This document shows positions 23,690-63,774 of a DNA stretch of 64,000 nt, piece after piece. The notes under the pieces are model-generated. The model ran no database searches, had not been told where the DNA came from, and saw only the letters and a program-made list of their open reading frames with translations. The DNA is from Psammoneis japonica (Eukaryota), in the NCBI GenBank assembly GCA_008632985.1, contig QPGO01000014.1, forward strand, positions 248,001 to 312,000, in the 5' to 3' direction. How positions within the stretch are numbered: position 1 is the first letter of the stretch; the number at the start of each line of letters is the position of its first letter. The position numbers were made by a program, and so were the translations under genes.

Positions 23690-25990
23690 CACCTCCCCCA
23701 TTGTCAGTGGGGGCGCCACCGTCACATCCTCCCTTGCCCCAAAATCATCCCATGCATTCAGATCCAGATTGTGGCCCAGTTCTTGAGGCACCAACAAATG
23801 CCTCTGACTCACCTCCTTTGGTGCCAACAAAACATTTGCATTGTTTCTATTTCTTGGGTGATTTGAGGATGTTCAAACAGTCTGTCTTGTGTGAAAAGCT
23901 CTTTGGTCAAGGCATGTGTGATGCCAAGATAGAAGAGATCTGCCAAAGTCCATGCAAGAACCAGATTTTCAATGTGAATCAGAAAGGACTCTGCAGAATT
24001 GGTCAGGAGTCATTGCTTCGTAAGCTTGCAGAATTTGTGGCTCAACTGGAAGAGTTGCCAAAGAAGCAGGCACTGCAGTCAGTTTTCGAAACCGCTTCAG
24101 AACGAAGCGCGCACAAAGCAGCTCATGAAAGGGCACAACGAAAGTCTTGCACGGAACAAACACAGTGCAATGTTGCGAATGACAAACCATCATTGAGTGC
24201 CATGGACACCTCTGGGAAGTCTTCTTGTTTTGACAGCGCACAGGAGAATCTAGAGTGACTGTTGCAAAATGAGTCTCAAGAAAAGGACGACAGAGCAGAA
24301 TCTAGAAAGCAGATTCTAGAAAGCAAGGTGAAAAGTGCATGTTGTCCACAAGGTCTCCCGGGAGCAAAATGGAGCAAGAAGCCGGAGGCAAATCCTCATC
24401 AGGAATCCTCGAATGATCTCGATGTCAGCAAGAATTCTCCTCCATTGTTTTGATGCATGCCTCCTGCATTGTCAGCGGGGGTGCCACCGTTGTGTCCTCC
24501 CTTGCACCAAAATCATCCCATGCACTCAGATCTGGATCGTGGCCCAGTTTTTGAGGCACCAACAAATCTGTCTCACTCATCTCCGTTGGTGCCAACAAAG
24601 TTTCAGAATTGTTTCCACTTCTTGGGCAATTTGAAGACATCCAAACATTCTGTCTTGCATGAAAAGCCTTTTGATCAAGGCATGTGTGATGCTGAGATAG
24701 AAGAGATCTGCCAAAGTCTGTGCAAGAACCAGGTTTTCAATGTGAATCAGAAAGAACTCTGCAGAATTGGTGAGGAAATGTTGCTTCGCAAGCTTGCAGA
24801 ATTTGCAGCTCAACTGGAAGAATTGCCAACGAAGCGGGCATTGCAGTCAGTTTTTGAAACCACTTCAGAATGAAACGTGAACAGCAAAGCAGCTCGTGAA
24901 AGGATGCAACAAAAGTCTCGCATGGAACAAATGCAGTGCAATGTCGTGAACGACAAACCATCATTGAGTGCCATGGACACCTCTGGGAAGTCTTCTGGTT
25001 TTGTCAGTGCACAGAATCTAGAAAAACTGTTGCAAAATGAGTCTTGAGAAAAGGACGACAGAGTGGAATCTAGAAAGCGGAATCTAGAAAGCGAGGCAAA
25101 AAGCACGTGTTGTCATGAACGTCTCCCGGGAGCAAAACAGAGCAAGAAGCCTGAGGCCAATCCTTGTCAGGAATCCTCAAATGATCTCAATGTTGGCAAG
25201 AACTCTCCTCCATTGTTTTGACACATGCCTCTTGCATTGTCAGCAGGGGTGCCACCGTTGTGTCCTCCCTTGCACCAAAATTATCCCACACATTCAGATC
25301 CGGATCGTGGCCCAGTTTTTGAGGTGCCAACAAATCCGTCTGACTTGTCTCCGTTGGTGCCAACAAAGTTTCAGAATTGTTTCTACTTCTTGGGCAATTT
25401 GAGGATGTCCAAACATTCTGTCTTGTGTGAAAAGCCTTTTGATCAAGGCATGTGCAATGCCGAGACAGAAGAGATCTGCCAAAAAGTCTGTGCAAGAACC
25501 AGGTTTTCAACATGAATGAGAAAGGACTGTGCAGAATTGGTGAGGAAATGTTGCTTCACAAGCTTGCAGAATTTGCAGCTCAGCTGGAAAAATTGCCAAC
25601 GAAGTGGGCATTGCAGTCAGTTTTTGAAACCACTTCAGAACAAAATGCAAACAGCAAAGCAGCTTGTGAAAGGACACAATGAAAGTCTCCCACAGAACAA
25701 ATGCAGAGCAATGTCGCTGCCGACAAACCATCATTGAGTGCCGTGGACACATCTGGCAAGTCTTCTGGTTTTGTCAGCACCCACGAAAATCTAGAAAAGC
25801 TTTTGCAAAACAAGTCTCAAGAAAAGGACGCTGGAGCGGACAGAAAGTGGAATCTTGAAAGTGAGGCAAGAAGCAAATGTTGCAATGAAGCTCTTCTGAG
25901 AGTGAGACAGAGCAAGAAGTCTGAGGGGTGATTTCTTGTCAGGAATCCTTGAATGATCTCGATGTCAACAAGATTTCTCCTCCTTGGGTG
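23690..25990 (+). repeat. Three tandem ~768-bp (256-codon) units in a degenerate coding region of an unidentified element
   Basis: ttgtcag...gccaccgt...cctcccttgc recurs at 23701, 24469 and 25237 (spacing 768). More diverged partial modules lie at ~26150-26800. Confidence 0.9.
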
Positions 25991-28028
25991 GGGCATGCAC
26001 CTTGCTCTCCAACTGCAGGCACATTGCATCAGCATCTCATTTGCAACCATTTGCAACCCTTTGCAACCCTTTGCTTTCATCACCAATGAAGTCCACACCC
26101 GCAGTCCTCAATGCTCCAACAAAGTCCCCTCACCAAGTTTCCTCAGCTTCAACAAGGTCCTTGGACCCAAAAGCTGTGTGCTTCTCGAGACATTTGTGGA
26201 CATCCAGCAAATGTTTGTTGATCAGAAAATTTAAACATCAAGGCATCGGTGCAACGGAGACTAAGAAGATGTGCCAGACACTGCACGAACACAATTTTTT
26301 CAAGGTCAATGATGAAGGCCTTTGCAGGATTGTCCAAGATTCTGTTCAAGAAATGTGCGACCAAATTGAAAGATTTGCCAATGAAGTGGGTGTTGCACTC
26401 ATGTGTGAAACCGTTGCAGGCTTGACTGACTTTTTGCAGTTCTCAGGACATTGTTGTGTGTCGAAAGGGTGCATGTTGCATCAAAAATGCATCAGCCAAG
26501 GGATCCGGGAGAACGAGATCAGAAAGATGTGCTGAACGCTCTGCAAGAACAAGCTTTTTGTGGCCAATGCCAAAGGCCTTTGCATGATCACCCGAAGGCC
26601 ACAGAACAAACTCAAGAAACTTGTGACTCAGTTGAAAGAATTGCCAACAAAGCGGGTTCTACAATTGCTTTTCGAAACCTCTTCAGAATGAAAGGACTTG
26701 AATGTGGCTTGTGAAAGGCCCGGGCAGTCATTCAAAGAGCATGAGAACAATGTCAAGCGGCCAAGTTTTCTGAACAAATGCAGAGCCCTTGTTGGAGAAC
26801 AGCAGATGATGGTTGCATCAGAGCAAACACACTCCCGGAAAAGGATGTGCCAAGCTCTAGTCTGCAGCAGATGATGAGAACTGATCAAAAGATGACAGTG
26901 TGGGATCTCCAAATCGAGGGCATCAGCAGCAAAGATTGTCAGAAGTCTCTGCACGAAGCAGAAATGCGCCAAACACACGACAACGCGGCGACAAGGGGAT
27001 CGACCAGTCGGCATCACAAGGGGGGCACGATTGCAATGATTTGCAAAACCACAACCTGCAGAGACTGATGAACATTGCCAAGAAGCTGAGTGCAGAGACA
27101 GACTGGGGGGCAGCTGACGAGCTGGAAACCGCTGGTGAAAGCTGCGGCTGTCCAACGGCGCATTTGCAGCATGCAGTGCATGTGGTGGACGGTGCCTTCA
27201 GCCTGCTGGCAGAGTGAAAATGATGACTTGCCGTGTCGACCCTGGTTTGTCAGGCTGGGCCTTCTCGTCATCAACCCAGCTTGCTGGGCTCTGTGTGAGG
27301 GAGGCAGGTGCCTGGCATGGTGCATTTGCAATCACTTCTGCTCTAGAGAGAAAGTGCAGGGTGCAGCACCAGCGCTGCACATCACACGAAAGATGATGAC
27401 AACAACTGAGCCTCGCGCCTCTGTCTTTTCGAAACTTTGCGCAGCACAGTCTTCTGAGGCAAGGCACAAAGATGACCGACTTTTCCTCCCTTGAAACAAT
27501 TTGTTCGAAGGACATGCCGGCACACCATGTTCACGCACACGACACGAAGAGCATGCACACCGCACCGACCGGCATTGGACAGGGCCCTCCACTCCATCCA
27601 AGGATAGAGGGCCCCACTGCTGCCGGTAGAGAGCAGTACAGTAGCTAGCCACTAAGTAGCACCTTAGCGAGTACACACTGTACTGACGACGACTCTGACC
27701 CGTCGTACTCGTGGCGGAGGGGTGTAATTCGGGGTGTAATTTTGGGGTGTAAAAACGCGCGACGCGCGTTTTTACACCTCCAAAAGAAAATTACAGCAAA
27801 CAAATAGGCCTCCAGAGGCTTGTACTATTTTTTTCCTGTAATTTTCGTGCGAGAGCAGACCGCATTGGCGGCAGAAAACGCAAAACACCTTGCGCCGCGA
27901 TCCGTTTGTCATTTAGTATCCATCTAAAGACAACACGAAACGACTTGTAAGACAACGATAGACTACGTTGTCTGTAGATACAACGCTTCTGTAGATACAA
28001 CGCTTGACTACAACGTCTATTAAGCATC

Positions 28029-37079: not shown

Positions 37080-37939
37080 CTTGTCAAGAACGAAGATTGA
37101 GGAACATTCTTTGAAGGCAGCCTACTCTAGCTCAAACGAACAACATGATTATCTTCAATACCCAAGGAGTCGAGATCGTAGTCAAATATGTAACACCATA
37201 GCGCCAGACGAGATCGAAGGCGGTTAGCGCTATATCTATGATTTGGTGAATACCTATACAGCATGCTAATGACGGCACACAAATTGTGAATAGCTGCAGC
37301 GCGGCCATAAAAATGTATCGTTTTGCACCGCTGGCAGGCACTCCAGCCGCATTCGTCTCTGCAGAGACATTGTGTTCCTGAGATCACCAGCAGCTTTTTT
37401 TTCTTCCCAACCTGTGTGAGTTGGGTCAAAACTGCCTGAGGTTTTGTGCTTTCTCCTGTCAAAGCACGCGCCATTTCCTCTCTCTCTCTCTCGAACGAAC
37501 TCTCTCTGCTTTTTCCAGAGGCCTCAGAACAATGACTCAACTTGGCCCCAAAAGCAAAGCAAAAAAAAAAGTTCAATCGGGGGGGGGGGGGGGGGGCAAG
37601 AACTCAATCAATCAATCAACTCAACGATTGCCAGTTAATGCTGGCACCCTCTACGGACTTTTGGCCGGCTGGTTACAGGACTCTGCAGAGAAATGCTCCA
37701 GACTGGCATCTAAAGAAGCCTGTTTGAACAAGGCACACTTGATGTGCAATCAAGGAGCATCTCCGTCAGTTGACCTGCCTGAGCAGGGCCCCAGTGCAGG
37801 ATGCTGCACGGCTGAAATGGAGCCATTGGTTTTTCAGATTTGATGGAACAGGTCCCCGGCACAGCTGATGACTTTTAAACAAACCAAACTTGAAATCTGC
37901 AGCATGAGGTCCAAGTCAAAGGTGCAACAGTTGGGCATG

Positions 37940-40900
37940 CTCGTCTCATCCTCCTGTTGTTGTGCACAACAAAGTGGGCAAGGGTGAGTTGTCGTCATCA
38001 CTTTTTTTCCATGGGTTCATTGATTCAAGGCAGTGCTGCAACCCATTTGCACAGCACAGCCCTTTCCGCTTGTGGTTGCATGTCGACTCCCAGAGTCCTT
38101 GATTGACGTTTGTGGGTGGCAGCGACATTGGCAAGCTGCGACCATTTGAAGGTGTGGTCCCCAGACAGGAGTGTGACAAGTGTCCCTGAAAATGGCAGGC
38201 AAATTCCTGAGACAGTTGTTCTCTGCTGCAGTGAAAGTGATGACTTGCATGAGCATCCAGTTCTTGCACAGCTTGTTTGCTCAGTTGCAGGTGGGCAGCA
38301 TTGTTGCGGTGCTTCCAGAGGCATTGTGGCATTTCCACAAGTTGCTTGATCCATCTCTGCACCCAGTTTGCAACAGTTTTCCTGGATGCTCAAAGGCGGA
38401 AGTGTTTGTTCTGTGCAGTTGCCCATTCTTTGGTCATGCACCCTTCCAGGAGTCTGTCCCAGCCAATGACATGTTGCGCTGCAGTGGCCCTGTGCAAGGT
38501 TGGCCTGGTGAAGGGATTGGCAGTGGCTGGGAGATGTCTGTCATTGCACCATGCCTGAAGGTGATCTTGTGTGGCTTCAGCAAGTCCAACAGCAGTGTCG
38601 TTCTTGTCAATCCACTTGATGTGTTTTTGCAGGAGTTTGTTCCACTTGGCCATGGCCTCCAGGCAAACTGCTGTGTGGTTGGTGTTTTCATTCTCCTTGC
38701 AACATCTTGGACATCTGGAATGGTCCTGTGTCTTCCATTGCTGAAGCCATTTGCCAACACCGCAGATTCCAGTGGTGTGCTTGGCTGGCCATTGCCTGCA
38801 TCCTGTGCTGAGTTGGTTGGCTGCATTGTCTGTGGCACCCCAGTGTTGATGCAATGAAAGCTCTCTGGCATGAAGAGGTGTTTCTGATGGACCAAGCATT
38901 GCATCAGCTTGGTTCTGCAGATGTGATTGAACAGTTGTTTGGGCAATTTTGTGGAGAGCTTGCATCCCCCCATGCAAACCAGCCACATTTTGCCTTTGAC
39001 ATTGCACTGGCTGGCATGGTGATGCTCTGTTCCTTGTTGTGTGTTGCCACTTGGCTTTTGCAAGATTGTCCATCTCAATGTTGAGTCTGGTCCATCCACC
39101 CAGCTTGCATCTGGGTCACGAGTCTTGGTGTCCTTTGAACCACCAAAACTTCCACTTGACAGGGCTTTTTGTGAGCTTGTTTTTTGCTGCGCTTGGTGCA
39201 TCAAACTTGTTTGATCTTGGCATGACTCTCCTGCAAGGGCAAGAGGTCTTAAGGAGTGCTTGTTTGCCATTGCACGCTGTTTCTGCCATGCCGTCCTGGA
39301 TGCCTTGGTGTGCACAGATGTCTTTGACGGTGCAGATGATGGTGCGCAGGCCAGCAATTTCTGCTCAGCAAGATTCAACATTGCCTGGGTGCCCCGGGAT
39401 CACATTCGTTCCTGTGACATGATTGTTGTCCAAAGGTCCTCGCACAGTGAATGCAGATGTTCCGAGTGTGTCTTTTGCCAAGCCATTGCTTGCTGCAATG
39501 GCAGCTCTGTTGCATGTGGCATTGGCAATGCAGGCTGGGCTGTTGTCCAGGGCGATGCTGGAGTTGCACCATTGCTTTTCTGGTGGGTGTTGGAGTGTCT
39601 CCTTTCCTGGAGTGTGGCAGGTGTGGCAGCCTCATGAGTTGTTGGCAGGCATGGGGAGGAGCCCGTGTGGCAGATCCTCCATGTGTTGTTTCCTCTGTTG
39701 CAAATCCCAGTGCATTGCATGTCCTGGGGCGGGCGTGTTGCTTCTGCAGGGACAAATCACCTGTGATCTCCACAAGTGCATCTCCCACTTGCTGGGTGGT
39801 GTGAGCTGCCTCCAGCAGTCAGTCACCAGATGTTGACAGATGTGGTCTTCCATTGGCAAGCAGAGCCAGACCCATGACTGTTCTGTCACTTCCTTGTTGG
39901 ATGCTCTCATGCATGTGGCATGGAGAGCCATCCTCCACAGGCTCTAATTGGAGGAGGAGGGTGTGCCTTGGATGGGCCAGCGACATGGTGATTGAAAGGA
40001 GGGGTCAGATTTTTCACCCCAGGCTGACTCTAGAATGCTCTTCCCACCTCCTGATGTGATGTCCGCTGGGGTGGTGGCCCACAGGCAAGAGCAGCACCTG
40101 TTGAGTGCGGCCAGTTTTGCACCATGGAGCCCTTCATTGGCAAACCTTTCCATCAGGAAGGAGTTGGTTGCTTGTCTTTTCCGGAGTTGTGCAGTGTCTT
40201 CCTGGATGATGATGTTGTGCTGGGACATGAATTTCCACAGATGCTCAATCCAGGATGGAGTGGCTAGAATGCCGCACTTTGAGCATGGTGCATCAAGAAA
40301 CCTTCCGCTGACTCCAATTTCAAGCCTGTGTTTCTCAAGCAGCACTCTTGTCAGCTCTCCAGTGATCAAGTCTTGTTTCCTGTGCTTCACAAATGCTTTG
40401 ATGTGTTTCTTGAACATGGTGAACTTGATCGATTCAAATCTGAGACCTTGAAACTGTTTTGGGCCATGCAGGACTGCTCTCAGAAAGGAGCAGCGCAGGC
40501 CAGCTCTTGGCAGGCCTTGCCAAAGAATCGGAGCTTCGATGTGCTTGCATTCTTTGGAGGTCAGGGTGAGAGCTAGAAGGGGGCAATCTGGGGCTTTCCA
40601 GATTCACTGTGTGTCAGGGACAACCAGGCATCTGATTTCGAGAGGTGTCCAGAGAAGACCCGATCTGCCCAACTTTCTGCTTGCTTCTGGAGAGTCTCCA
40701 CCACTTTGTTGCAGTTCCTGTCAGGAGCTGGCCACACTCTGAGAGTGCTTTTGGCTTCGCTTGGGTCCAGCCAGGGTGTCATTTTCTTGTTTCTTTGTTG
40801 ATCCTGGATGCACATGTGTGGGTTGGTTTCATCGGCTGGATCGACAGTCTCTTCTGCACAGCCCCATTTCCCATTCTTCCACTCAAACTCAATCAAGTGC

Positions 40901-43900
40901 CACCAGCATTTGTCTGGTTGGAAATCACCTCAAGCGACTCTCGTGCCACCTGCAAAGCAATCCAGACCTTGCTGGGGCCTTCTTTCTTGGGAATGAGCAG
41001 GTCCACACCTTCTTGTCTCCATCTCTTTGGGGCCTGTTCCAGCTCCAGGTGCTCCGAGCGGGTTCGATTCCCATCATTTGGTAATTAACTTTTTCCAAAT
41101 CCGTTTTTTGCCAAATCGAAGGGCAAGTGTGCACTTTACATGCATTTTCGGGTGTACACTCACCTTTCGATTTTCGAAACGATCAAAATTGAAGGAGTTA
41201 ATTGCGCTAAACTGCGCAGAAAATCGGCCTCTCGCGTGATGAAAAGCAGATCACCTGGAGCTGGAACAGGCCTTGGAGCACAGCCCACGATGCAGAGGAA
41301 GTTGGCCATCGAGGTGTTCATTTGTGCAAGCAGTGGATCATCATTGCATGACGCTTGGAAGGGGGTGGGACAGAGGGCTGATGGACCTGCACAAATTTTC
41401 TCCTTGGCATGCTTCCATGAAGCTGTGTGTTCATCCGCAATGCAGGGAGGAGGTGGAGGGGTGCAGTTGTCTGGGTTTTGGAGTTGCAACACGTGTTCTT
41501 TGATGCACCCATTGGCACCATCTGGAACTTGGCAATTGCCCTCCAGAATGGCATTGGTGTGTTGTCTGATGCCCAGGAATTGAAGGTTGTTGATCACAGG
41601 TTTGGTCATGAGGTGGGTCTCTTTGGTCTGATGCAGTCTGTTCTTGCACTCCAGAAGGGGGGGGGGGGGGCACACTCGATTTCTTCTTTTTCCATGACTT
41701 CTCTGTCATCTTCCCCTTTGTGTTTCTCCAACAGCTGTGTGAGTGCTGCCCTGGTTGGCTTGCCTGATGCTCTGTTGACCCTGTGGTTCTGGTCCCATTG
41801 CTCTTCTTTCTGCTGCAGGACTCTCAGTTGTCTTTCTTCTGTGGAGTTGTTGGCCTTGGCCAATTGCTCTGCTTGTTTCTCTGAGAATGTCTTCCTGTGC
41901 TTGCTTGCTTCTTGGGTGACTTTGTGGCGCTCTTTGCACCTGAACGTGAGCCCTTGTTTCAGTTGTTTGAGGGTGAGGTTGTGAGCTTTGAAAAGTCCTT
42001 GCATTTCTTTTCCAGTTTTCTGATTTTGCCAAAGCTGGTCTTGAGTTTTTTCCTGCACTGTGTCAGGGCCAGGTGCAGCTCCATCTGATTGGACACCCAC
42101 TTCAGCTTTGGTGGCCAGGGCACTCTGCCTCATCTAAGTTTCCTGCATTTTCTGTTGGCCAGCCAGCAGAACCCTTCAGTCCTGAGATCATTGGTGCATT
42201 CCCATTCATCTGTTTGATTGGGCAGTGGGAGACAGGCCTCATTCTTGGCATGTGTTTCAGGTGTGCCTGTTGCTGGATGACTCCTTTGTCCACCAGATTG
42301 GATTTGGTGGAGACAATGAATTGGGAGTGATCAGGCATCAGCCTTGCTGAGGCTTTCAAGGGTTGGCACTCTTGTTGGACTTGGCAAACATCTTCTGCAG
42401 AAGGGGTCCCCAGCTGCATCTGCGTCTTTGGAGTCAATGTTGATGTGGTGCGCTTTTGGCTGGGGATGTCCATCCAGCATGGCATCGGCTGGTTTCATGA
42501 CTTTTTTTGCCCTCAGTTCAACCGGCTTGCCAAGAAGTTCTCTGATCCTGTTCTCCATCTTACTCAAGTCAATCTGATTTGACATCATCACAAGTCACCT
42601 GCAGCACTTGGCATGTTTGGCTCCTTGCGGGGTCTCAGGATTCATGTGTCCATCAAACAAGTCCTTGAGAGTGAACTTGACAGTGTCCACCAGTTTGTTT
42701 GTGTCCATGTTGGTGCTGAGCCAGATGTCAAGCCAGCCATCCTTCTCAACATTTGGCTTGAGTTGGCAAAGGTGTGTCTTCATCCAGGCGAACGGCATCT
42801 TTTGGAGCTGATTCTTGAAGGCACCATCCTTCTGAGTGATGGGTTTGTTCTTGACACCACCAGTCTACATTGCCGCCACTGTGCTGCTGTCACCTGTGAG
42901 TTCACACATTCTGTCAATCATGGACCCAAATTTCCTGCCCAGTGTGACCTCTGCATTTTCTGCCTTGTTCTTCTTTTGCAGTTTTTGCCTGCTTGAGGGT
43001 GAATCTGATGAAGCAATTCCATTGGATCTTCTCTTTGGTTCCTTTCTTGTTTGTGTTGAAGATCGGGGCTGTCTTGGTGTTTTTCTTGCTTGTTGCATCA
43101 TCCTTTTGTTTTTGTGTTTCTGCTGTCATTGTTTCAGCTTTCTCCTTTGCCTTGGTTGAGTTTGCTTTGGTGTTCTTCTCATTTTCTTTGGGTGGCAGTG
43201 CTTCTTTTCTGTTCTTTTGTTTGTCTTTCTTGCTTGATTTTTTGTCATTGTTCTTGAGTGTGCTCTTGGTGTCACCTGGTTTTGTTCCAAGAGCGACACA
43301 TGGTGGGGTCATCTGGCACAGTTCAGCGGCCTTTGGCTTTGTTGTCTTGTGTCCATCTTCAGGTTGTTTCTTCTCTGGTTCTTGTTGCTTGATTTCCTTG
43401 TTGTTCTCTTTGGGATTGTTGTTTCTGGTGTGGTTGTTGAGCATGTCCTTTGGTTCCATGGCATCAATTTCCATGTCTTTGGTGGGATTGGGGTCACTGG
43501 CATCTTCATCTTGATCAGATTCCAAGTCGCCATCTTTCTTCATGTCCACCTTGTGAGGCTCCTTCTCTGGTGCTGCCACTTTGACTGCTTTGCATGAGTC
43601 CATGTCCTCAGGTTCATCTGAAGATTTGGGCCCCAGATCAGGGTCACTCTCATCTGGAAGGAAAGGAACTGGGTCCTTCTTTGGCAGTGGCTTCACTCCA
43701 AGAACTTTGCATGAGTTGTGTTGCTGGCATCATTGTCATCTGCCTGGCTGCTCTCCTGCTCTGAGTGGCAAAGGAGCTCATCATCATTGCCCACTTTGAC
43801 TTCACTGATGGAGTCACTGGAGCTCAATGATTTGTCAGAGGAGGAGTCCAAGGATGATGAACTGGAAGAGGATGAAGAGGAAGAGGAAGCAGAGCTGGAA

Positions 43901-44350
43901 GCAGAGACCATGAAGGAGTTGTCTTGGCTGATTTTTCCCTTCCTTTCTTCTGCTTGCTGCTCTTCTTTTTCTTCAGGGTTTTGTCTGCAACCTTGTTGCC
44001 TGTGCTGTCAAGGTTGTTGAGGACAAGCTTGTCAATGGGTGCTTCATCGGTGGTGTGCCAACTTTCACACACCTGGGTGTCTTTGTCTTTTTCATCATTG
44101 TTGAGAGATTTGAAGTGGCTCAACTTGGTCATTCCTTTGGGGGGTGATTGCATGAAGCTGTCATCGTCTGAGTCCACCTCCTGTGTGACAGCAAGTGTTT
44201 TTGCTTGATGGTGTTTTTTAGGGTCTTGAATCCATCACAGTCTTTGTTTTTTGTGATTGCATCTTTGGCTCCGCTGTCTTTGGTGGAGGAATCAAAGAAC
44301 TTGATGATGAGAGGTTGTTTCATTTTCATTGTTTTTGCTTGCTTTTCTGG
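37940..44350 (-). mobile_element. Degenerate Ambal-like LINE (ORF1 ~44330-42330; ORF2 with partial RT, RNase H, zinc knuckle)
   Basis: Fragments GCAP/KRWRQEGVDLLIPKKEG, IEFEWKNGKW, LRVWPAPDRN, WFKGHQD, CPRCCKENENTNHTAVC, IGWDRLLEG and LWKHRN. Many stops and frameshifts. Confidence 0.8.
41031..41272. mobile_element. 242-bp MITE with perfect 21-bp TIRs inserted in the LINE RT
   Basis: ggcctgttccagctccaggtg (41031-41051) and cacctggagctggaacaggcc (41252-41272), flanked by ttgg on both sides. Removal restores A-P-K-R-W. Confidence 0.9.
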
Positions 44351-45849
44351 GGAGAGTTCATTTCATCTTTGCTGGCTGATTTCTTGCAAGGAGAAAGAGT
44401 GCCCTTGTGTTTGGTGCAACCGCTGGGGGTCATCATCATGGTGCTGAGACAAGGAAGGACATTCCTGGGCAAGAATCAGTGCTGGATCTGCGTGAAGAGG
44501 TTGGCAACTTTGTGCACTGATGCACACTGGAAAAGCGGGGGTGGTGAGAACTCAGAAGAGACACCGTTTTGCACATTGCCAAGCTCAGCTCCTTGGGCAT
44601 CTCCCAGCATCCAGCAGCCTTTGCATCAAATGCAGGATGCAAAGACAATGTCAGCTGGGTGCACAACAAGTGCAAAAGTGCCTCAAAAGGCACTTCCCCT
44701 CAGAAGATGTTCAAATGTTGGAGCTGACAAGACTGACAGAAAGACTTCTGGTTTTGAATCTTGTCCATGTCCTCATGGTTTGATCATTGAGAACCAGGTG
44801 CTGTGCCACTCCCATCAACTCCTGCACACTGACACCTTTGCATGGCACACCTCCCCATCCAAGAGCAACCTCTGCCATTCTTGAGTCCATCTTGCACCCC
44901 AGCTCTGTTGCCCACCCGCTTGCCCACAGAAACACCATCATGTCTGCCCAAGGCACATCCAATGGTCACACCAGTGGCAAATCCAACAAGAAGCATGCAA
45001 ACAACTCCACCCCAAATGGCAGCATCTGCCCCACTGCCAAGGTTGTCACCAAGAAGTGTCGACGTTCCCACAGAGGAACACATGTGAAAGCAACCAGCAC
45101 GACTTTTGCAGTGTGGTTTGTGCGCTGTGGAAAGAGGGATCTCCTCATCCTGGCAAAGCTGTCAATGGCAGAAGCTTTCTTTCTTGTGCAAGCAGGAGTT
45201 GTGGCTTGTGCAGGAGAAACCTCTTTTAGCTGAGGCAAGTTGCACTGTGGTCACTCCTGTTGTCATGGTGTGAGCCCATGCAAGCAACAAAGAGTGCTTG
45301 GCTGAGTTGCCTGGCATGAGAGCTTGCAGTGCAATGTTCAGGCCTGTGCTCACAAGCACACTTTGTGAGAAATGACAAAGCTCCAATTGTGGGTGTCAGA
45401 TCACAATGTGACAGAATGCAAGCTTGCGCAAAAACAGGCTTTGAAGATGCTTTTTTCCTTGACATGTGTGCTGCACTGACATCAAACTCAGACCTGCCCT
45501 GCAAGTTTAGACCTGGGAGTTGAACTCAGAGGTTGAGCAAAGGAAAAGACAGTCTCTGTGGGGTGGGTCCTGAAGATGGCAGTGGGGAAGAGTGCTGTGG
45601 GTGAGTCTGGGGTTTGCAACAGAGAATTTTTTGCCCTTGCTGGCGGCATGTTGAAGTGTGCTGTGAAGGTCCATTGTGCTGCTTGCCTTGCAGCAGGCAG
45701 GGCTGCAGCTGTGCACCATGCTCCACCCCCAATTTTGGTGCCTGTGTGTGCATTGCAGAACAATCTCTGCCTGTCAGTCTGTCAGCACCAACCCCAATCT
45801 CAGAAGACCTTGGTGGGTCAACAAAGGCCACCATCACCCACTTCCAAAA

Positions 45850-46100
45850 TTGCAAATCTGCTCATCTTTTTCAACAAACATGTCATTGATGAAAGGCTGC
45901 AAGGTCTCCACATGCTGTGCATCCTCAAGGGTGGAAGCATCAAAGAACCCAAAGAATGCTCAGGCACCCAGGTCAGAAAGCGCCAGCTTTTCAGCTCCGA
46001 TGGAAAGATGCAAAGCATGCCATGTCCTGTGATTTGCACATTGAGAGGGCCATTGTGGATGTTTGTTTTGAGCTCTTGTTGTCTTCCAGCAAGGCTTGTC
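45850..46100 (+). mobile_element. Probable Copia RT fragment
   Basis: LKGGSIKEPKECSGTQVRK and AMSCDLHIERAI resemble Copia LKxxSIKEPxxYLG / MSSxxYVxxAI with Tyr replaced by Cys/His. Confidence 0.45.
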
Positions 46101-46720
46101 AAGAAAACCCCTTGATGCCAACAAGCTCAGGATGGCAAAACTCAGCTGCGCTGACATTGTGGCACCAGCTTTGACTCTGTCATCCCACATTTGAGAAATT
46201 TTCATCCTTCACAGAAAGGAAATTGATTTGCAACTCAAACTCCCCACCAGTGTTGGGCACCTTTGCTGTGCAAATGGGTCCAGACTTTGTTGCTTCTCCT
46301 CAGCGCAGGTTGCAAAAGTGGCGCTTGGCCGCTTGCTCTTGCTCGCTCCTCTTGCACTTGCTCAAGAGACTGCCCACCTTTGTTCTTGATTTGTTGGACC
46401 AGGAATTTGCCACACACAGTCACATGTGTGGTTGCACAGAACTTGCACTTCCAGCCATGCAGTCACAAGCTTGTTTCAACATTGCATGAAAGAACAGTCA
46501 GCAGCACACCCACACATGGACGCTGCTGCGCTCTTGCGTCTGTTGTTGCGTGCGGTGCGGTCATCATAGTTCAACTAGTGCGGCATGACGGTCCATCCGT
46601 CTGACGGATGTTAGGTGTGGTTTGCTCTGGGTCGTGTGTGGTGTGTGGGGCAATATTTTTTAGAAAAAAGACCCGTACATAAAGGGCTTGTTCTACCGGT
46701 ATGCTGTATGTATGTACTGA

Positions 46721-54298: not shown

Positions 54299-55674
54299 AC
54301 AACAAAATGTGTCATTGAGTTGGTCGATGTGATTAAGGTAAAGACGCATATAGGAACGGGTTAAAGTTCAATTTTCAATGCCTAGTTAACACGAACGTGC
54401 AACTGATTCAATCCGACTCAAACGTCGTTGCGTAAACTTTCAGGTCCTCCAATCTCTTTAGCAGTAGTGTCCTCCAACGCAATCAATCTACTCTCTCGTG
54501 AACCTTGATCCTGAGCTGGCTGTCTAGCTCCTTATGAATACACCAATCGATGCCGCACAATGCCTTAGCTGCATGATGGCCAATTCGTCGATTGCCAAGT
54601 CAAAGCAAGAGTCTGTTCGGAACGCACTGTGGCTTTTTCTAAACAAGCATCTCTGCGGTCACCATCTCAATCTCGCAGTGTGCCTGTGCCAGTGCCAGCA
54701 CCAGGTTTCAGAGAAAGTGAAAATGCTCAGTGAGGCACAGCTCCTTCTGTGACCCATTTAAATCATCTGCTGGTCAGCATGCAAACTTTGCCTGCGAGCA
54801 AGATGCAGGCCACAGAGAAAGAAACCTCAGCTCTGGTTGCGGATGATGCCAGCAACAATTCTTTTTCTGAAGGCAAGTGCTGGCTCCCATGCCATGGTTC
54901 AGTGGTGGCAAATGGCGCCCATTTGCTGGAGCAATGTTGGGTTGGTCATGTGCTCACATTCCTTGAGAAACTCAATGAATGATGAATGATTGGAGATGGC
55001 TTCAAGCTCTCGAGGCAAACTCTGGCAAAAAGGCATGCTTGAGATCAAGTTCCAACTTCAGGGGGGCATCAAAGCATTGAAGCATGACTCTCGGGTTCTG
55101 ACCTGCTGCTTTGTCAGCACTGCATTGTCTTTGAGATGCCCTCATTTTCAGCAAACTGCAGCGCTTTGCTGTGTCACCAAAAACCAAATTCAGAGAGAGC
55201 AACAAAGAAGTTTCTGTCATCCTTCCCCCTTGCTGAGTGGGACGATGTGCACCTCAACTCAGATGGGCCATTTGCAGCTGGCAGCAGCACTCTGCTCCCT
55301 GAATCATTGAGGTTGTTGTCTTTTTCACATGACAGATTCTGAAGAAGATGGGCCAGCACCTTGCTTTCAACAACACCGTGCTTTGCAAGCCGAGCTTTCA
55401 AGACAACACAGCACCATCCAAAGCCCCACAAAACCAGCCATTCCTTGCATGTCAAGTTGCTCTTCCAGTGCACATCACTCTGTTGCTTTTGTGACAAGAT
55501 CCATGTTGTTGGTTTGTGGGTGTCTGCAGCTGCGTGCATTGCCAATGAGTTGCACAAGATGCTGGGGGCACAGCAGCCACAAAAGTGTTGCACAAGCAAA
55601 GCTCCATTTTCTGCACATGCTCCAGATTGCTCTTTTTCACATCTTTTGCAATGTGCAGCTGCCAATGAGAGTTG

Positions 55675-56100
55675 GTGCATCACGGCGACATGTTGCAGCC
55701 TTTAAATCTCACAAAGGGCGTGACAAAAATGACCTTTTGTCTGCATGCACACTGCATTGTGAATTCACAGCGGAGTGGTTCATCGCAACCATTGGGCAGG
55801 AGGCCAGGGGTTCGAAACCCTGAGTGGGAGTTGTCTGCAGCAACGTTGATCACTGTCGAACGCGCAAAACTCTGTGCAGTTCTGCACGTTCCTTCGTGCG
55901 TGCCCACACTGTTCCGCCAAAACCATGCAGTGTCAGCACACGTTAGCAAAGAGCCGTGTGGATGCGTGACACATGGGGAGGAGTGCAGTGCACAGCTGCT
56001 GACAAGAGCCAGTGCATCACGGCGACGTGTTGCAGCCTTTAAATGTCACAAAGGGCGTGACAAAAATGACCTTTTGTCTGCATGCACGCTGCACTTTGAA
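55675..56100 (+). repeat. Pair of ~89-bp direct repeats 337 bp apart
   Basis: gtgcatcacggcgac(a/g)tgttgcagcctttaaat...gaccttttgtctgcatgcac at 55675 and 56012. Confidence 0.9.
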
Positions 56101-59100
56101 GTGCTGAGCAGGCAGCATGAGCCCCTGGTTGTGAATGAACAAGCACAATTTCAGGAGCTCTGAGGGGCAACAATGATGGCAGCATCTGTGGCAGCAGCAG
56201 CCAGCCAAACTGCAAAGCCTCCACTGCAACAAGAAAAGAAGAGAGGGGCACATCCCAGGTGCTTCTGTCTGCAGTCTGGTCACTTTCAACACGCATGATG
56301 AGGGCGCCTTTTTTGTCTCACTTTGTCACAAAAACATGGCACTTTGAAGGTGTCTTTGTTTTGTGCTGCTGTTTGCACACTGTCACAGCTGCTCCAGCAG
56401 TGATGTTCTTGCAAGAGTGGCAATGAGAAGGAGGGGAGCATCGAGCATCTTGGTTGCCCCTTTTTGCAGGTTGTGCCCCTGGCAGCTTGGTTGAATTTCA
56501 GACTGTGGCCCAAATGTCAAAGAAGGCAGCAGCAGTGCACTGTGACTTTTGCACTGTTTTTGTGAGGACACTGCAAAAAAAAATGTGAGTGGGGGGTGGT
56601 TGGCTGGAAAAAGTCACAACTTTTTTTCAGCCCCTCTGCCCACCAGCTCTCCATGGCATCTGCTGACATTGTTGTCATCAAAAGAATCTGCTCCCTTTTT
56701 GACTCTGTTTCTTTTTGTTCAACCATCACTCGGACAGTGGCAGACATTGTTGCACTGGGAGTTGTTGCCAACATTGACTTGATTTCCATCAACTGCCAGC
56801 AGCACACATCAGGACCAATTCATCTGCTCAAACAATCCAAAGCTCCAGCGCTGCATTCTTTCTTGAAAGCACTCACCATGTGTTCTTGAGCTTTTCCACA
56901 GAGCTCCTGAAAGTGCTCAATTTCACACTGTGTTGGCTGGACTTGTTGAGGATCTGCACTGCTGTCGTTGATGTTGACCAACCCAGGTGCTCTGGATTCT
57001 TTGGTCTTTGGCAGCAAACAAGTTGTGCTGGCTTCTCCATCTTTTCTGAAACCTCTGCATTGGCTGCAAACCCTTGAGCAGCTGTTGTCTCTTTGGCTGT
57101 TGTCCTGGTCATTCTTTGGATGTTTTCAAGAGCCTCAGCACCCACTTGCACCCAAGAACTTGCACCTGATTTGCGCCAGCAACATTCTGAAGTCATCCAT
57201 TTCTTTCACATGTGAAGCCATGGATTTGAACTCTGCTGGTGCTTTTTCTTGGTGTCTGTTGCTGCTTGTTGCTTTCCATCTCTGTCATTTTCAAAAGTGT
57301 TGGTTTGAGCTCTGCCTGGGTGGAAAGAATTTCTGTGTTTTTTGCACAATTTCTGTTGTTGCAAATTGAAACAACTGACCCAGAGTTGTCCTCATTTTGG
57401 CATCACTGTCCTCCAATGCTTTTTGCTGCAAGTCTTTCTGTTGTTCCTCCCATCTTTGCCCTCCTGCACTCTCTTTGTTGTTGGCTGCTGAGCTGTCAAG
57501 AACCTGCAAGGCAAGAAGCCCAAGCAATGAGATCTCACACACTGGCAAATGGTCCAAACTGATGGTGGGGCCTGCGCAGATTCAGTCAGCAGACCACAGC
57601 AGGAAACTCAAATGTGCCCAGCAACCTGTGTCTCATTTCCTCTTTCTTGTCCAACTCACAGTGTTGCATTTTGTGTGTCATGGCTTGTGCTAAAGAAAAT
57701 GGCATGCACAAGTTCAAAGGGGGCAGTTGCTGTTTCTTGTGCTCCCCACAGGTGGCCACCTGTCATCAGATGTCTTGGGTCTTTCCCTGTAACCTGAGCC
57801 ATGCAACTCCAGTCCCTTCCATGCCCACCTTCTGCAAGGTGGCAGCTGGCACAACAGATGCTTGCTGTGGATGGATGAACAGAACAGCCCCACAGGCCAA
57901 TCGTGAAGGCCGCCACATCACCAACCAAATCAAGGCAATTGATGTGTGCCAACCACTGGCTTCAGATCCCTGCCAAGGCATGCATCTGCCATGCACACCA
58001 AGCTTCGCGCATTCCACAAGATCAAAGGCAAATCACTGCCAGCTCATGCAGTGGAGCTTGTGAGGAAACAACACTCGAAGGACATCCTGAGAACCACAAT
58101 GGGAGAAATGAGCTTTGATCATCTCCTTCCAAACTGCCTTTTCCTTTCATTGACAGCAGTGCTTGGCATTTCAAGAGGTCACTCAAGAGACAAGTGGTGG
58201 TGGCCAAAATGCAATTCAATGGTTTTGCCTTTGAGCAGAAGGGCAAAATTTGCAATGCAACAAGCGTTGCTGTGAGGCACTGAGACAATGTGTGACTTGG
58301 TCAGTTGTGTGCTGCTGCTGATGAAAGACCATGTGGCATTGCAGTTCAAGAGGTGAGCTGTGGCTTTCAGTCTAGACTCAGCTGGATGTGAACATTGACA
58401 GTTTGATCTCCTAAAAATTCTGTCCTTTGTGGCTTCACCAACCCGTCATTTGCTCCTTGGTTTTTTGCTGAGCCTGCAATGGATGCTGTGTCTTCATCAA
58501 ACAGACCCAAATCATTGTTGCAAATTGTTGCAGACCAGTTGCAAGCTGTCTTCTTTGCTTCCCCATCTTTGGGATGCATTCCTTCAGGGGCAACATGCCC
58601 GGAGTCTGACTTCAGTGCTGCCGCACACTGGACCAGGAGACAAAGACATGTGGACATTTTTCAGACATGAAATCATCCTTGACATGCTTCCACTGGTTGG
58701 CAAGCTCATCTTTCAGCATGAGTTTCCCCTTTTGTGGATCCAGGTGATTTGGTGGCACAACCAGTCTAGAGCCAAAGTTTCAATGTGGCCACAACCTTTT
58801 TTGCATTTCTTTCAAACTTGGATTGGACAAGGAGGCATGCCCAGAAGACACTGCAGCTCTGGCCCCACATCAAGCACATGACATTGGGGCCAGCACTGGT
58901 GTCAGAATGACAAAACAGCGGAACTTGGCCTTCAACTGTGCCATTTGTTGCTTCGTGCATCCAGTCAATGGCTTTCTTGCATGCCACATTTCCCTCCCCC
59001 CCCCCCCCCCCACACACACACACACACACACACATCCACAGAAATGACACCACAAGATGACTTTGTTGAAACACAAAATCACCAGAGCTGCTGTGAAAAG

Positions 59101-60249: not shown

Positions 60250-61750
60250 GTGCCGGATGTGCGGCAGAATGATGCACCTCCAGAATGCCATCCTGAGATT
60301 CACAACACTGTTGATGTCTCCCTCTGTTGTGATTGTTTGTGCCATGTTTCCCACTTTGCATGACATCCTCACAAGGTCTTGGGAACCAGGATTCCCAGCA
60401 AAGTTGCCCCCTGACAGGCAGCGGCATTGACTGCAATTGGCGCTCATGCTTCCAGTTGCAGAAAACCTGTGGAGGCACTTTGCACACAGAATCATGGCAG
60501 CTGCATTGTCAACTCCTGCAAGTTCAAAGTTCAGCCTCTGTGCTGCTCCAGGTGTTGAGCTTTTTAACTTTGACACAGCAGCCTGCACTGCTCCATCACC
60601 CATGGTCACAAGTGGTGCTCAAAGTCAGGATGTGCCGTGCTGTGACAATGATGTGTCCACACAACATTTGATTGCTTGGAGCTCTTTTTCACTCAGTGTG
60701 GCAACTTTGTTTTGCACTGGGTTCAAGCACTTGACACAACAGACTGACTTTCTCTGTGACAGTTGGGTGCACATCCACATGGCCTTGCTTGGACACAAAC
60801 AGCCCCTTGGCCACCCACATGTGAGACATCTCAGTTGGTGGTCTTGTGCCACCAGCGTCAAATGGGTTCTCTCCAGCTGGCATCATGGCAGCACCCACAC
60901 TCTTGATCTCTTCAGCAAACTTGTCAATCATCTTGTGAATGCAGTTGGCCATGTTGACCTTTGCCTGGCCCTTGTGAGTGAAGTCCAGGGTCATCCCAAG
61001 GTTTTTCATTGTGCTTCTTTTTTCATGTTGCAACAACTTTGCCATGGCTTGTCTGTGCATTTTGTCAAGCCAGCTCAGAACTTGTCATTTGCCTTTAGAT
61101 TGATGTGGCCTGACAGCAGATCATGCATCCACACAGAAGTGCAGAGTGTGCTGCTTGCTGTTGACCAATTGACTGGCAATGCATGGGCTGTGTGGGTCAA
61201 TTTTGAACCAAATTTTCTCCAAATCTTCACAAAATTGTTTGTGCCACAGAAGAGTTGTGACCAACATGCAGTGCATGGCGCTGATGACTTGGACACAGAG
61301 GACTCTCTTTCCCTTCATTGCCACACATGGTCCACACAGGTTGGGATCAATGCTTGCTGGCACATCAACCAACACTCCTGAGGTCTTTGTCATGATCCAG
61401 TCTTTGCTTTCCTTGGGTTCTGGGATCAAAGTCTGGATGAATGTGTTTGGCACATCAGTGCTCATCACATCACACTCTTCCATGGCATGAACAATGGCTG
61501 TCATCAGCACTCCTTCCAACAATGACGTTGGGCTGGCTGACTCATTCTTGTCCAGCCATTCTCTTGATTGTTTTCTGTTGTGAGCCATTTGCCCTTTTGT
61601 GCAACCATGTTGCTTCTCCACTGGGAACACCAAGGCAACCATGGCCTTGGCCCTCTCACTCAGAGTCATGTCTTTGACAAATGTGGGGGTGCAAAGCACA
61701 CTCTGTTGCAGAGTTGTTCAATCTCCTTTTCTGAGCCATTGTGCCCTTTC
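60250..61750 (-). mobile_element. Degenerate Ty1/Copia (CoDi-like) RT-RNase H
   Basis: SASPTSLLEGVLMTAIVHAMEECDVMSTDVPNTFIQT, LLWHKQFCEDLEKIWFKIDPHSPCIA, HTLHFCVD, and RNase H MTMGDGA...ELAGVDNA. Confidence 0.9.
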
Positions 61751-63774
61751 TGGCCAAATGCTTTCAGCCCTTTGCACAACAAATGTTGTTGGGCAAAGGA
61801 GGTGCCCTTTCCTGATTCGAGTTGATCATCAACATCACACATCTTGTGCTTTGCCTCATGTCTTCCAAAGATCTTGCCAAATGCATGCTCTGTTCATGCT
61901 CACTCTTTGTGAAATGGGTGATTTTCTCTTTGAGATCTTTGCACACAGCATTGCAAGCATTGCTTTTTGGTGACAAAGGATGAAACTTCATCTCAGGCTG
62001 AAAGCTTTTCTCACTGCAGGTCTTCTTCTCTTTTGGTTGCAAGATTTGTTGCTCTTGTCACCTCTGCCACACAACCACAACTTTGGCCTTGGTCTCTTCT
62101 GCTTCTTGTTTTGCCCCCTCCTTTGCCACTCATTGTGCAGATGTTCACTGCAGGTTGGCATTTTGCAAGCACTCAATGTGCTGGTGCCAGCAACTCTTTG
62201 GAGCACATGTTGAACTGGCAAGTCAATGTTGCCAAAAGGGAGTCCCACCAGGCTTCCTGTGATTCTCACTTCACTTGTCTTGGCAGTCTGTGTTGTCTGT
62301 GGGTTGGCGCCAAAAGGTGCCTGGATGAACTGCAAACTCATGCAGTGACAGGTGCCTGCTGATGCCAAATGACAGGCCAAATGATTCACTCCAAAGAGTG
62401 AGACAAGCCAAAAGCCAAAGGCAAATGATCAATGATGGTGAGGAGGTCCTCCACCACACAGAGAATCATTCTTTGAGCCACATCAGGGGACAAAACATCT
62501 TTTCTTCAACGCACCCATGGGTCTGTTGCAACTGGCACCCATTTTCTGAAGCAGTGCAAGGTTGGTTGCTTGCTCACTGACAATGCTTGAAAAAACTCAT
62601 CAAGCAACAAGTGGGGGGTGAGAACCTTGAAAATCTTGGCTTGAGCCCTCACAACAACAAAAACTGGCAAGGTGCACTCAAAAACAAGTTCCAACTTGAA
62701 GGCATCAACACATTGAAGCAAGACCATGGGTTTGTGACCTGCCACTTTTGTCAGCATCACATTGTCTCCAAGACACCTTTCTTCAGCATGCACTGCAGCT
62801 GGGCCATGCAGCCAGATTTGTGACAGGATGGAGAAGTCTTGCTTGCCTTCTCCCCTTCTTGTGTGTGTGGGATGATGCACAGTTCAGCTCAGGTGGGTCA
62901 TTTGCAGCTGATGGCAATGCTGCTCCTCCAGATTGTTGACTTCCTTGCAAGAAACATTTTCAAAATGATGAGCCAGCATCTTCTTTTCAACCATGTGCTG
63001 GGGGGTGGCTGCAGCAGGTTGAGCTTTCAAAGCACACCACCACACATCACCATCTCAAGCACTCTGCTGCAAAACTGTGTCTTGTGCGTCAAGTCACTCT
63101 CCCCACACATGTCAGGCACTGCTTTCATGACAAGATCCATGTTGTCATTTTTGAAGTCTGTGACTGCATGCCTGTTGAATGAGCTCCAATGGACAGATGC
63201 TGGGGGCACAGCAGCAACCAAATGAGCTCAGTGTGTGCAAAGTTTTTGTCCTGCACACACCAAACACATTGCTCTCTCTTCAATTTTGAAAGCTGGTGGC
63301 AAGAGCTCCTCCTGGTTGTCAAGCTGCAAGCACAACTTTGGCAGCTCACATGGGGCAGCAACAATGGCGTGGCAGTGGCATGGCCAAGCTGTGCACAAAA
63401 AGCTGACAGAACACCAAAGGTCGACAATGACAGAGGTGTGAAAGACTCCCTAAAGTGCCAGGACTGTGACAACACGAGCACTGGCAGATGAGAAAGTGAG
63501 AAGCAGATCTCAGAGAGATCTGCTCGTCCATCTAAATGGTCCAGCCATCATCCGCATCCAGTCTGTCCATCCTGTGGTGGGTGCAGATGGGCTGACACCC
63601 TCCCCTGATCTGCAACATCTCAAGATGGAGAACAGTGCAGATCAAACCAAAGAACATGGATGATGTGAGGAAAAAACAGAGAGACTGGACATGGGACATG
63701 ACAAGTGTCCATGCCCAATGCGCAATCAAGCAAGGGGGCAATTCACAGCAGGGAGGCCACCGCGGAAAAAAATG

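Follow-up and report, generated by a model that had tools for sequence, protein, structure and literature searches.

Conversion of TpA to TpG and CpA in a copia relic and other repeat blocks of a diatom-like genome

A dead Ty1/copia-type reverse transcriptase (RT) without a single tyrosine codon lies in a 64,000-nucleotide stretch of contig QPGO01000014.1 (positions 248,001 to 312,000; this whole stretch is called the window). The relic belongs to one of four blocks from which nearly all TpA dinucleotides have gone. The blocks have undergone a TpA-directed, transition-only, strand-symmetric and element-limited conversion, together with a separate, less complete decay of CpG. The probable reading, and the one preferred here, is that the relic lies in a repeat-bounded transposon block in which TpA was changed to TpG or CpA in the chromosome, by targeted hypermutation of silenced repeats. 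We infer that this process is enzymatic and defensive, and the same holds for the identity of the enzyme proposed below.

A copia-type reverse transcriptase without tyrosine

The relic is defined by phmmer homologs, by tblastn high-scoring segment pairs and by the Pfam domain RVT_2 that its homologs carry.

60527..61822, minus strand: dead Ty1/copia-type reverse transcriptase with the start of an RNase H

It occupies a single frame of 432 codons with five in-frame stops (all TGA), no Tyr and no frameshifts, and is single-copy by k-mer depth in sequencing run X1. The sequence-only reading that first drew attention to it had given 61121-61699, which falls inside the relic but is too short. With the relic as query, phmmer returns 1997 homologs at E ≤ 1e-3, the top one at E 5.7e-53 and 38% identity, and full-length copia polyproteins give tblastn segment pairs in one frame over 61813-60527. 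Only the RT/RNase H part was recovered in this way; a tblastn search of the window with 24 long copia polyproteins found no gag, protease or integrase. The relic itself matches no Pfam family at E ≤ 0.01 and, at E ≤ 10, only DUF6547 (E 0.19) and not RVT_2 (PF07727), and a six-frame Pfam scan of 54699-64000 gave no family at E ≤ 0.1. All eight homologs that were scanned carry RVT_2, five of them above the 31.6-bit cut-off, and the relatives are RVT_2 polyproteins in which the RT is followed by RNase H. The assignment as copia-type therefore follows from homology to RVT_2-bearing polyproteins, not from a Pfam match of the relic's own. The catalytic core is lost, the consensus WHVDDL having become FCVDA followed by a stop. 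Judged by its sequence, the relic combines a dead copia-type RT with the beginning of an RNase H and is not a functional RVT_2 member.

Conserved tyrosines were said to be systematically replaced by Cys or His in five peptide strings (NLCGPCV, VLCVQV, AMHCML, LLWHKQFC and DPHSPC). All five lie in the same frame at 61181-61342 (minus strand), and the copia consensus given for them agrees with that of real relatives (..LYg.yV, VLYV, KALYGmL, LLfYkKfr and NPYDPCV). An alignment to RVT_2 had been proposed as a check. The profile fails to recognise the relic; the fates of the Tyr codons come from alignment to its homologs. Two counts were made. For the first, 59 of the 150 best homologs (at least 220 residues covered) were aligned, and columns with Tyr in at least 50% were taken; in these eight columns the relic keeps no Tyr and has three Cys, four His and one Asn, whereas it retains 68 of 145 non-Tyr consensus columns (Fisher p=0.009). 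For the second, the 150 homologs were split by their own Tyr content into 124 normal, 16 with less than 0.8% and 10 intermediate, the last being dropped. The eight columns with at least 60% Tyr among the 124 normal homologs are occupied in the relic by F C C H H H H N. Cys or His thus stands in 6-7 of 8 consensus-Tyr columns. The result that would have refuted the claim, Cys or His in active relatives, is not what the columns show: in relatives of normal Tyr content 655 of the 755 cells are Tyr, 14 are His and 8 are Cys. The column table against the homologs places the codons as follows.

61334-61336 TGT, 61325-61327 TGT, 61295-61297 TGT and 60941-60943 TGC, minus strand: consensus-Tyr codons now Cys
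61271-61273 CAC, 61241-61243 CAC, 61190-61192 CAC and 61055-61057 CAC, minus strand: consensus-Tyr codons now His
61001-61003 AAC, minus strand: consensus-Tyr codon now Asn

Tyr codons are erased because TAY always contains TpA; TAY to TGY gives Cys and TAY to CAY gives His. The codons found, TGT/TGC and CAC, are those which these two changes require. The further claim that TA was changed to TG or CA on both strands is also supported, with a Cys:His ratio of 3-4 : 4 in the relic and of 42 : 43 in the 16 Tyr-poor relatives; TG and CA are equally frequent in the relic (121.8 and 122.8/kb). The signature is wider than Tyr codons. At 57 of 116 conserved columns the relic differs from the consensus, and reverting one TG or CA explains 20 of these 57 (12 to TA, 8 to CG); two mock dinucleotide schemes account for 8 and for 1. 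Examples of such replacements at pyrimidine-purine (YpR) steps are R to C, R to Q, I to V after T, V/L to A/P, and I to T. The original account was incomplete in one respect: CpG has been lost too (R to C, R to Q), so that part of the TG/CA excess derives from CG and not from TA.

Relatives elsewhere have an ordinary composition for the most part. From 572 confirmed metagenomic matches the 78 best-scoring were taken, a choice that leans to intact copies, and 73 of the 78 could be measured over the homologous RT segment of about 960 nt. Their medians are 45.6 TA/kb (minimum 10.7), 42.6 CG, 78.7 TG and 77.2 CA, with 11 Tyr (minimum 4), 5 Cys and 8 His; the relic has 1.0 TA/kb and 3.1 CG/kb in the same segment, and 0 Tyr, 11 Cys and 16 His. 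Over the whole locus, the ratio of observed to expected TA (o/e) of the best 78 of 572 is 0.30-1.09. One metagenomic locus, L035, is intermediate, with TA at 10.7/kb, TG+CA at 194.7/kb and 4 Tyr. Among the 150 best homologs, whose median Tyr content is 3.4%, 11 are without Tyr and 5 more have less than 1%. At Tyr columns these 16 Tyr-poor proteins have 43 His, 42 Cys, 4 Tyr and 6 other residues (Cys or His in 85 of 95 cells), and they derive from separate ENA, Logan and JGI assemblies.

TpA-depleted blocks and their surroundings

Whole blocks are depleted of TA, non-coding repeats included.

1..1484: depleted block, cut by the window start; TA 2.7/kb, CG 17.5/kb
21870..27605: depleted block; TA 4.5/kb, CG 28.2/kb; holds three tandem 768-nt units (23672-25983) and the string DPCGDH
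37316..46567: depleted block, content unrecognisable; TA 2.5/kb, CG 12.9/kb, TG 121.2/kb, CA 91.5/kb
54759..~63400: depleted block, holds the copia relic; TA 1.7/kb, CG 8.2/kb, TG 112.5/kb, CA 115.8/kb

TA falls from 37.4/kb in the gene-bearing background (37.4 kb in all) to 1.7-4.5/kb in the blocks, and CG from 55.9/kb to 8.2-28.2/kb. TG and CA rise from 75.1 and 73.4 per kb to 99-121 and 92-116, respectively, and the YpR total (TA+CG+TG+CA) is unchanged, at 228-248/kb in the blocks and 241.8/kb in the background. The 26.6 kb of blocks hold 72 TAs where about 1000 are expected (93% removed), and TA is absent over as much as 2355 nt at a stretch (P~4e-39). In the 1-kb bins of 23001-27000, 38001-46000 and 55001-64000, TA o/e is 0.00-0.11 (mostly 0.00-0.05), while the mean of TG and CA o/e in each bin is 1.525-1.965, with single values down to 1.29. 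GC in block bins is 0.46-0.53, except for 0.55 at 22001-23000. CG loss is looser than TA loss, the blocks keeping 8-28 CG/kb. The left edge of the relic block is sharp: TA occurs 17 times in the last 463 nt before 54759 and then not again for 944 nt; the border at 46567 is abrupt as well, 1059 nt without TA being followed by 36 TAs in the next 500 nt.

These features bear on the idea that an old, CpG-methylated relic has simply decayed neutrally, with no TA-specific process. The element is old, as the 11% transversions between its bracketing repeats indicate; CpG decay is standard in methylated transposons, and diatoms methylate transposons (PMC9998398, accessible text). Neutral decay, however, makes TA from TG/CA and by transversion. 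It does not remove 93% of TAs, nor does it give sharp borders, an unchanged YpR total or the YTAR-specific residue described below; as a full account it is barely credible.

Once TAA and TAG are gone, only TGA stops remain, and the blocks are consequently full of long spurious open reading frames (ORFs): six frames of the 26.6 kb yield 269 stop-to-stop ORFs of at least 60 aa. When 89 ORFs of at least 90 aa from the other blocks were searched against Pfam, only two sub-threshold hits appeared (HTH_32 and Agro_virD5), both among the 54 ORFs of 37316-46567. TA-free relics are thus likely to be called as genes, though profile libraries miss them; such Tyr-poor relics make up 16 of the 150 best-matching database proteins. 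The block at 37316-46567 is also strand-asymmetric (TG 121.2 and CA 91.5 per kb, T 30% and A 20%), unlike the other, symmetric blocks.

The same tyrosine loss had been claimed for relics of long interspersed nuclear elements (LINEs). One of the two strings cited, GCAPKRW, is absent from all six frames of the window. The other, DPCGDH, does occur at 22793-22810 (minus strand), but its LINE identity could not be demonstrated, no homolog having been detected: the ORF that contains it (21997-22974, minus strand) has no Pfam match at E ≤ 0.01, no homolog of near length at E ≤ 1e-3 (longer proteins were not searched) and no usable Atlas match.

The window is a mosaic in which about 37 kb of gene-bearing DNA with long, intron-poor ORFs is interspersed with the depleted blocks. 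Besides the copia relic the blocks contain long direct repeats, tandem units and a nested element of high copy number, and the background holds diatom-like genes; conversion is confined to repeat or foreign regions, with normal sequence alongside. Background gene products include a phosphodiesterase, two subtilases, an MFS transporter, an MIF4G-like protein and a seven-transmembrane receptor. For one background gene every one of the best named matches comes from a diatom (Odontella, Minutocellus, Thalassiosira, Ditylum, Cyclotella and Leptocylindrus), with identities of 41-50%, and the genome carrying the blocks appears diatom-like, judged by its host genes. This points to a host that is a diatom or closely related to one, without a near neighbour in the database. 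The subtilase (Peptidase_S8) paralogs at 31418-34546 (plus strand) and 48413-50878 (plus strand) lie 16 kb apart and share 73% DNA identity over 1 kb (32119-33114 against 48454-49452). ARAGORN found no tRNA genes in the whole window.

Two further stretches deserve mention. An ORF of 475 aa stands open at 28008-29432 (plus strand), has TA and CG at normal levels and encodes a DDE_Tnp_4 domain of PIF/Harbinger type (E 9.7e-23); TA-depleted stretches flank it on either side. Terminal inverted repeats were looked for around this transposase island, and none were found; the ORF is either a young, unconverted insertion or a domesticated gene. The 912 nt of 29920-30831 contain only 2 TAs, with CG at background level (55.9/kb), TG and CA at 80 and 81 per kb, without excess, and no Pfam match. 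This segment may be natively TA-poor rather than converted, and it was excluded from the block statistics on trinucleotide survival.

Conversion in the chromosome and its sequence context

A long direct repeat stands on each side of the relic block, and one of the two copies is interrupted by a small high-copy element.

54905..55638 and 56111..56200: left copy of the long, LTR-like direct repeat (LTR: long terminal repeat), interrupted by the small element; found as six seed families with a spacing of 7629-7638
62525..63387: right copy of the long direct repeat; found by seeds, blastn and tblastx
55639..56110: small high-copy element inside the left repeat, recognised by k-mer depth; terminal direct repeats of 117 nt, 55647-55763 and 55984-56100

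Each repeat copy is about 0.8 kb long, and the spacing is about 7636. blastn aligns 55046-55584 with 62685-63222 at 64.5% identity, and tblastx similarity picks up again at 56111, opposite 63298. The 604 reliably aligned positions show 131 transitions and 68 transversions (11%). They include 25 double sites at which one copy has TG and the other CA; the next commonest double difference occurs 6 times. If each site goes randomly to TG or CA, about 50 sites must have been converted to leave 25 mixed ones; the resulting 83/kb is close to the whole TA+CG density of intact relatives (88/kb). Differences of this kind indicate that the copies were converted independently and on both strands. On the assumption that the repeats are LTRs, identical at insertion, conversion took place after integration.

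The nested element leads to the same conclusion without the LTR assumption. It is about 470 nt long and present in about 450 copies, with a summed k-mer depth of ~28,000-29,000 in run X1, where single-copy sequence has ~62. All nine listed differences between the window's copy and other copies are of YpR type, six involving TA and three CG. At 55794, 55865, 55885, 55898, 55902 and 55947 the window has TG or CA where 35-67% of the other-copy depth has TA, so that the element was converted after landing in the block. The element carries a B-box-like sequence, GGTTCGAAACC; an Rfam search of 55500-56300 gave no match at E ≤ 1, and the element may be a repeat of the short interspersed nuclear element (SINE), terminal-repeat retrotransposon in miniature (TRIM) or satellite kind.

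The reverse situation is found just outside a block. A repeat of about 10 copies (46669-47500, and 49023) keeps TA in the window, at 72 TA/kb over its first 500 nt. In its other copies, compared in the same read set at 46.8-47.5 kb and at 49023, TG or CA replaces TA at 8 listed sites, each of RTA type. Conversion has therefore not reached every copy of the family. Taken together, two repeat families provide 6 sites that are TA in other copies and TG or CA in the window, and 8 with the reverse arrangement. The three tandem 768-nt units (23672-25983) add 42 sites at which both TG and CA occur among the copies. A binomial estimate on this triplet (~11-12 of 27 TG/CA-only mixed sites from CpG) was set aside, since the copies share ancestry.

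Editing before integration is a further way in which such changes might arise, namely ADAR-like conversion of A to I on element RNA, or a deaminase acting on cDNA, fixed by reverse transcription. A-to-G hypermutation of retroelements through RNA editing is known in animals, and a 5′ U preference is compatible with TpA; the 3′ G preference of ADAR, on the other hand, is the opposite of the 3′ Y over R seen here. The RNA route also changes only sense-strand A to G, giving Cys and no His, whereas both are equal here and TG equals CA. The two direct repeats carry different outcomes, and a separately inserted element within the block has been converted too. In addition, the comparable changes in Bigelowiella natans appear in culture, in viral DNA that is chromosomal and single-copy (Mettrop et al., bioRxiv 10.64898/2026.01.13.699255, accessible text). 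Taken as a whole, this makes editing before integration very improbable.

The TA-poor state could instead be native to the element families, selected as an escape from TA-directed defence or through avoidance of UpA/CpG in RNA, with the relic TA-free when it was inserted. The family at 63401-64000 suggests such a state. This segment (minus strand) is the C-terminal end of a second copia-like polyprotein, VDNESAIKI...HIEIQFFAIQEW. It has a summed depth of ~6271 as compared with ~62, only 2 TAs in 600 nt and CG still at 33/kb, and no TA-type change is among the 6 differences listed between it and other copies; the family may have been amplified while TA-poor, possibly escaping the TA-directed process. 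The relic, however, is single-copy by depth, contains five stops, and no longer has Tyr at RT-core columns where at least 60-92% of relatives have it, and all 78 sampled relatives have ordinary TA content. Neither the TG/CA differences between the non-coding bracketing repeats nor the TA in other copies of the small nested element agrees with a native state, which is accordingly rated improbable for the relic, if somewhat less so than editing before integration.

Read data bear on a technical explanation, in which modified bases in silenced repeats are systematically misread as the other purine or pyrimidine during base-calling or assembly. Modified bases do cause systematic nanopore errors; the library type of run X1 is unrecorded, X1 is the only sample found to contain the sequence and possibly the source of the assembly, and no RNA data set is listed as containing this stretch. 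Yet k-mer contigs of X1 (Logan) match the relic block with 0-1 differences, and their unit depth of ~62-68 equals that of flanking genes, so the reads are not error-rich. The same reads give TA at homologous positions of other copies, the Tyr-poor relatives come from separate assemblies, and a strand conflict at palindromic TA would not yield clean TG or CA without CG. An artefact of this kind is hardly to be expected. Over 20 kb, long X1 contigs differ from the window at two positions only, 46186 (window CA, contig TA) and 55163 (window CG, contig CA). Both lie in blocks and are of YpR type, a hint (n=2) that the processes are recent or ongoing.

The surviving TAs occur in a particular context. 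YTAR accounts for 49 of the 72 survivors and for 222 of 1403 TAs in the background (p=2e-21); it is made up of CTAA/TTAG (18), TTAA (16) and CTAG (15). RTAY, by comparison, accounts for 2 of 72 against 423 of 1403. With strands pooled, survival relative to background is 13% for TAA and 14% for TAG, but 2.9% for TAC and 1.2% for TAT. Among TA to TG/CA differences between repeat copies, 13 of 14 have TAY, mostly TAC, on the strand with the changed A. The relic's four Tyr-to-His codons all follow a purine, which means TAY on the opposite strand. Provisionally, and going by these contexts, the target looks like 5′-TAY.

The same context could reflect attack on thymine. A TET/JBP-type oxidase might make 5-hydroxymethyl- or 5-formyl-uracil at TpA in silenced repeats, with mispairing with G or faulty repair leading from T to C; the context would then be 5′-RTA. 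A to G on one strand is T to C on the other, and TAY is RTA opposite, so that sequence cannot separate the two. Thymine hydroxylation in dinoflagellates and base J at trypanosome telomeres favour T in TpA. Base J at telomeres, however, sits at YTA (TTA, CTA), the reverse of the RTA preferred here; there is no sign of such bases in the present case, and the sole paper on this signature proposes adenine deamination. Thymine oxidation at RTA is the main alternative to adenine deamination, though an unlikely one.

Proposed mechanism and comparison with known systems

For targeted hypermutation of silenced repeats, the following course is proposed. In the integrated block, practically every TpA would have been turned into TpG or CpA by A:T to G:C transitions, the product being set by the strand whose adenine (or thymine) was hit. 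Most CpG would separately have become TpG or CpA through deamination of 5-methylcytosine in methylated transposons. The process would be regional, halting at element edges and also converting a small element inserted in the block. It would act on both DNA strands and favour 5′-TAY-3′ on the strand with the changing A; since YTAR is TAR on both strands, YTAR sites survive about ten times better. The favoured chemistry is deamination of adenine to hypoxanthine in TpA by a putative TadA/ADAT2-like deaminase. The native TadA/ADAT2 target is U33-A34-C35 of the tRNA-Arg anticodon loop.

Several observations weigh against this reading or narrow it. Neither an enzyme nor a DNA modification nor a de novo mutation was observed, and the process is known here from its footprint alone. 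The context expectation was taken from the host-gene background and not from the ancestral element, and TGC is enriched as the TAY rule predicts but TGT is not; both points keep the rule provisional. The RT starts about 560 nt from the right repeat, and some 4.3 kb lie between the RNase H and the left repeat. The bracketing repeats may thus not be the relic's LTRs, which makes identity at insertion an assumption, and the copia fragment may be nested or rearranged. TG/CA sites alone cannot tell TA from CG ancestry, and in the tandem triplet the third copy still has CG at 14 of the 42 mixed sites and only 6 sites still show TA, so that a CG and a TA process are both visible there. The high-copy family at 63401-64000 shows that TA-poverty can be inherited and need not be acquired in place. 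Read support comes from one sample (X1), possibly the assembly's own source. Finally, 37 of the 57 residue changes in the relic are not of YpR type, and the repeats carry 68 transversions in 604 nt; relic and block are therefore also old, and hypermutation is not the sole decay.

A wider proposal is possible, though it has rather less than an even chance of being right. Diatoms, and perhaps, together with B. natans, all of the stramenopile-alveolate-rhizarian (SAR) lineage, would have a defence like repeat-induced point mutation (RIP) but of opposite polarity, in which a 5′-TAY DNA adenine deaminase, its preference resembling the anticodon-loop target of TadA/ADAT2, erases TpA in silenced repeats and so removes all Tyr codons and all TAA and TAG stops. 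Some families, such as that at 63401-64000, would amplify TA-free, and the 16 of 150 copia proteins that are (nearly) Tyr-free would be the environmental footprint. The diatom-like relics and these 16 related database sequences suggest that the process is widespread in marine protists.

RIP is the known system to which the blocks are most readily compared, targeted hypermutation against repeats being textbook knowledge only for fungi. In ascomycetes, RIP is a transition-only, dinucleotide-specific, in-place hypermutation of repeats; it changes C to T mostly at CpA, creates TpA and raises AT, and it requires a sexual cycle and RID/DIM-2. As in RIP, the affected regions are bounded and coding capacity is destroyed, the elements being filled with stops and missense changes. 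Here, however, TpA is destroyed and GC is kept, a mirror image of RIP. Fungal RIP itself does not fit, since TpA is removed and not created and GC is unchanged. Deaminase hypermutation directed against selfish nucleic acids is also the common ground with animal ADAR and APOBEC, and ADAR favours a 5′ U; the substrates of these enzymes are RNA or single-stranded cDNA and their signature is confined to one strand, whereas the changes here are symmetric and follow integration. The CoDi lineages are reportedly the diatom Ty1/copia (RVT_2) retrotransposons. The relic's relatives likewise are RVT_2 polyproteins and its host is diatom-like, though the relic itself fails RVT_2.

The CpG component fits a known process. 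According to the accessible text of PMC9998398, diatom transposons are methylated by DNMT5a, and the RID-related DNMT4 is widespread in diatoms. Decay of CpG in methylated transposons accounts for the half of the signature in which CG becomes TG or CA, including R to C, R to Q and the CG kept in some copies; it cannot give TA loss, or Tyr to Cys or His.

The closest parallel is that in B. natans, and full-text literature searches found no other paper describing this signature than the preprint on this organism (bioRxiv 10.64898/2026.01.13.699255). As far as its accessible text goes, two viral regions integrated in mutation-accumulation lines had acquired 231 mutations, of which 230 were A to G or T to C, all of these at TpA. 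The viral DNA consists of integrated nucleocytoplasmic large DNA virus (NCLDV) and virophage sequence. The genome has 124 TpA-depleted, CpA+TpG-enriched clusters, RT and DDE domains are enriched among TpA-depleted coding sequences, and an ADAT2-like deaminase is proposed. The likeness to the present blocks extends to A to G and T to C at TpA only, in foreign DNA only and on both strands, and to a TpA-depleted, CpA+TpG-enriched footprint that includes RT.

The differences, again as far as that text goes, are as follows. The B. natans host is a rhizarian, whereas the host genes here are diatom-like, with long intron-poor ORFs. The targets in B. natans are mainly viral insertions that still have 3.3% TpA; here they are transposon relics that are essentially TA-free. 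The words CpG, context and diatom are absent from the preprint's main text, whereas CpG co-depletion and a TAY/YTAR effect are found here. The rate was measured directly in B. natans, and the process in the diatom-like genome is known from its footprint. In detail, the present case adds a context in which TAY is sensitive and YTAR resistant, a process independent of CpG loss, and borders that are sharp and element-limited. The signature is the same as in B. natans; what is new is that it occurs in a different supergroup and in transposon relics, that it is saturated there, and that a context rule and co-depletion of CpG accompany it.

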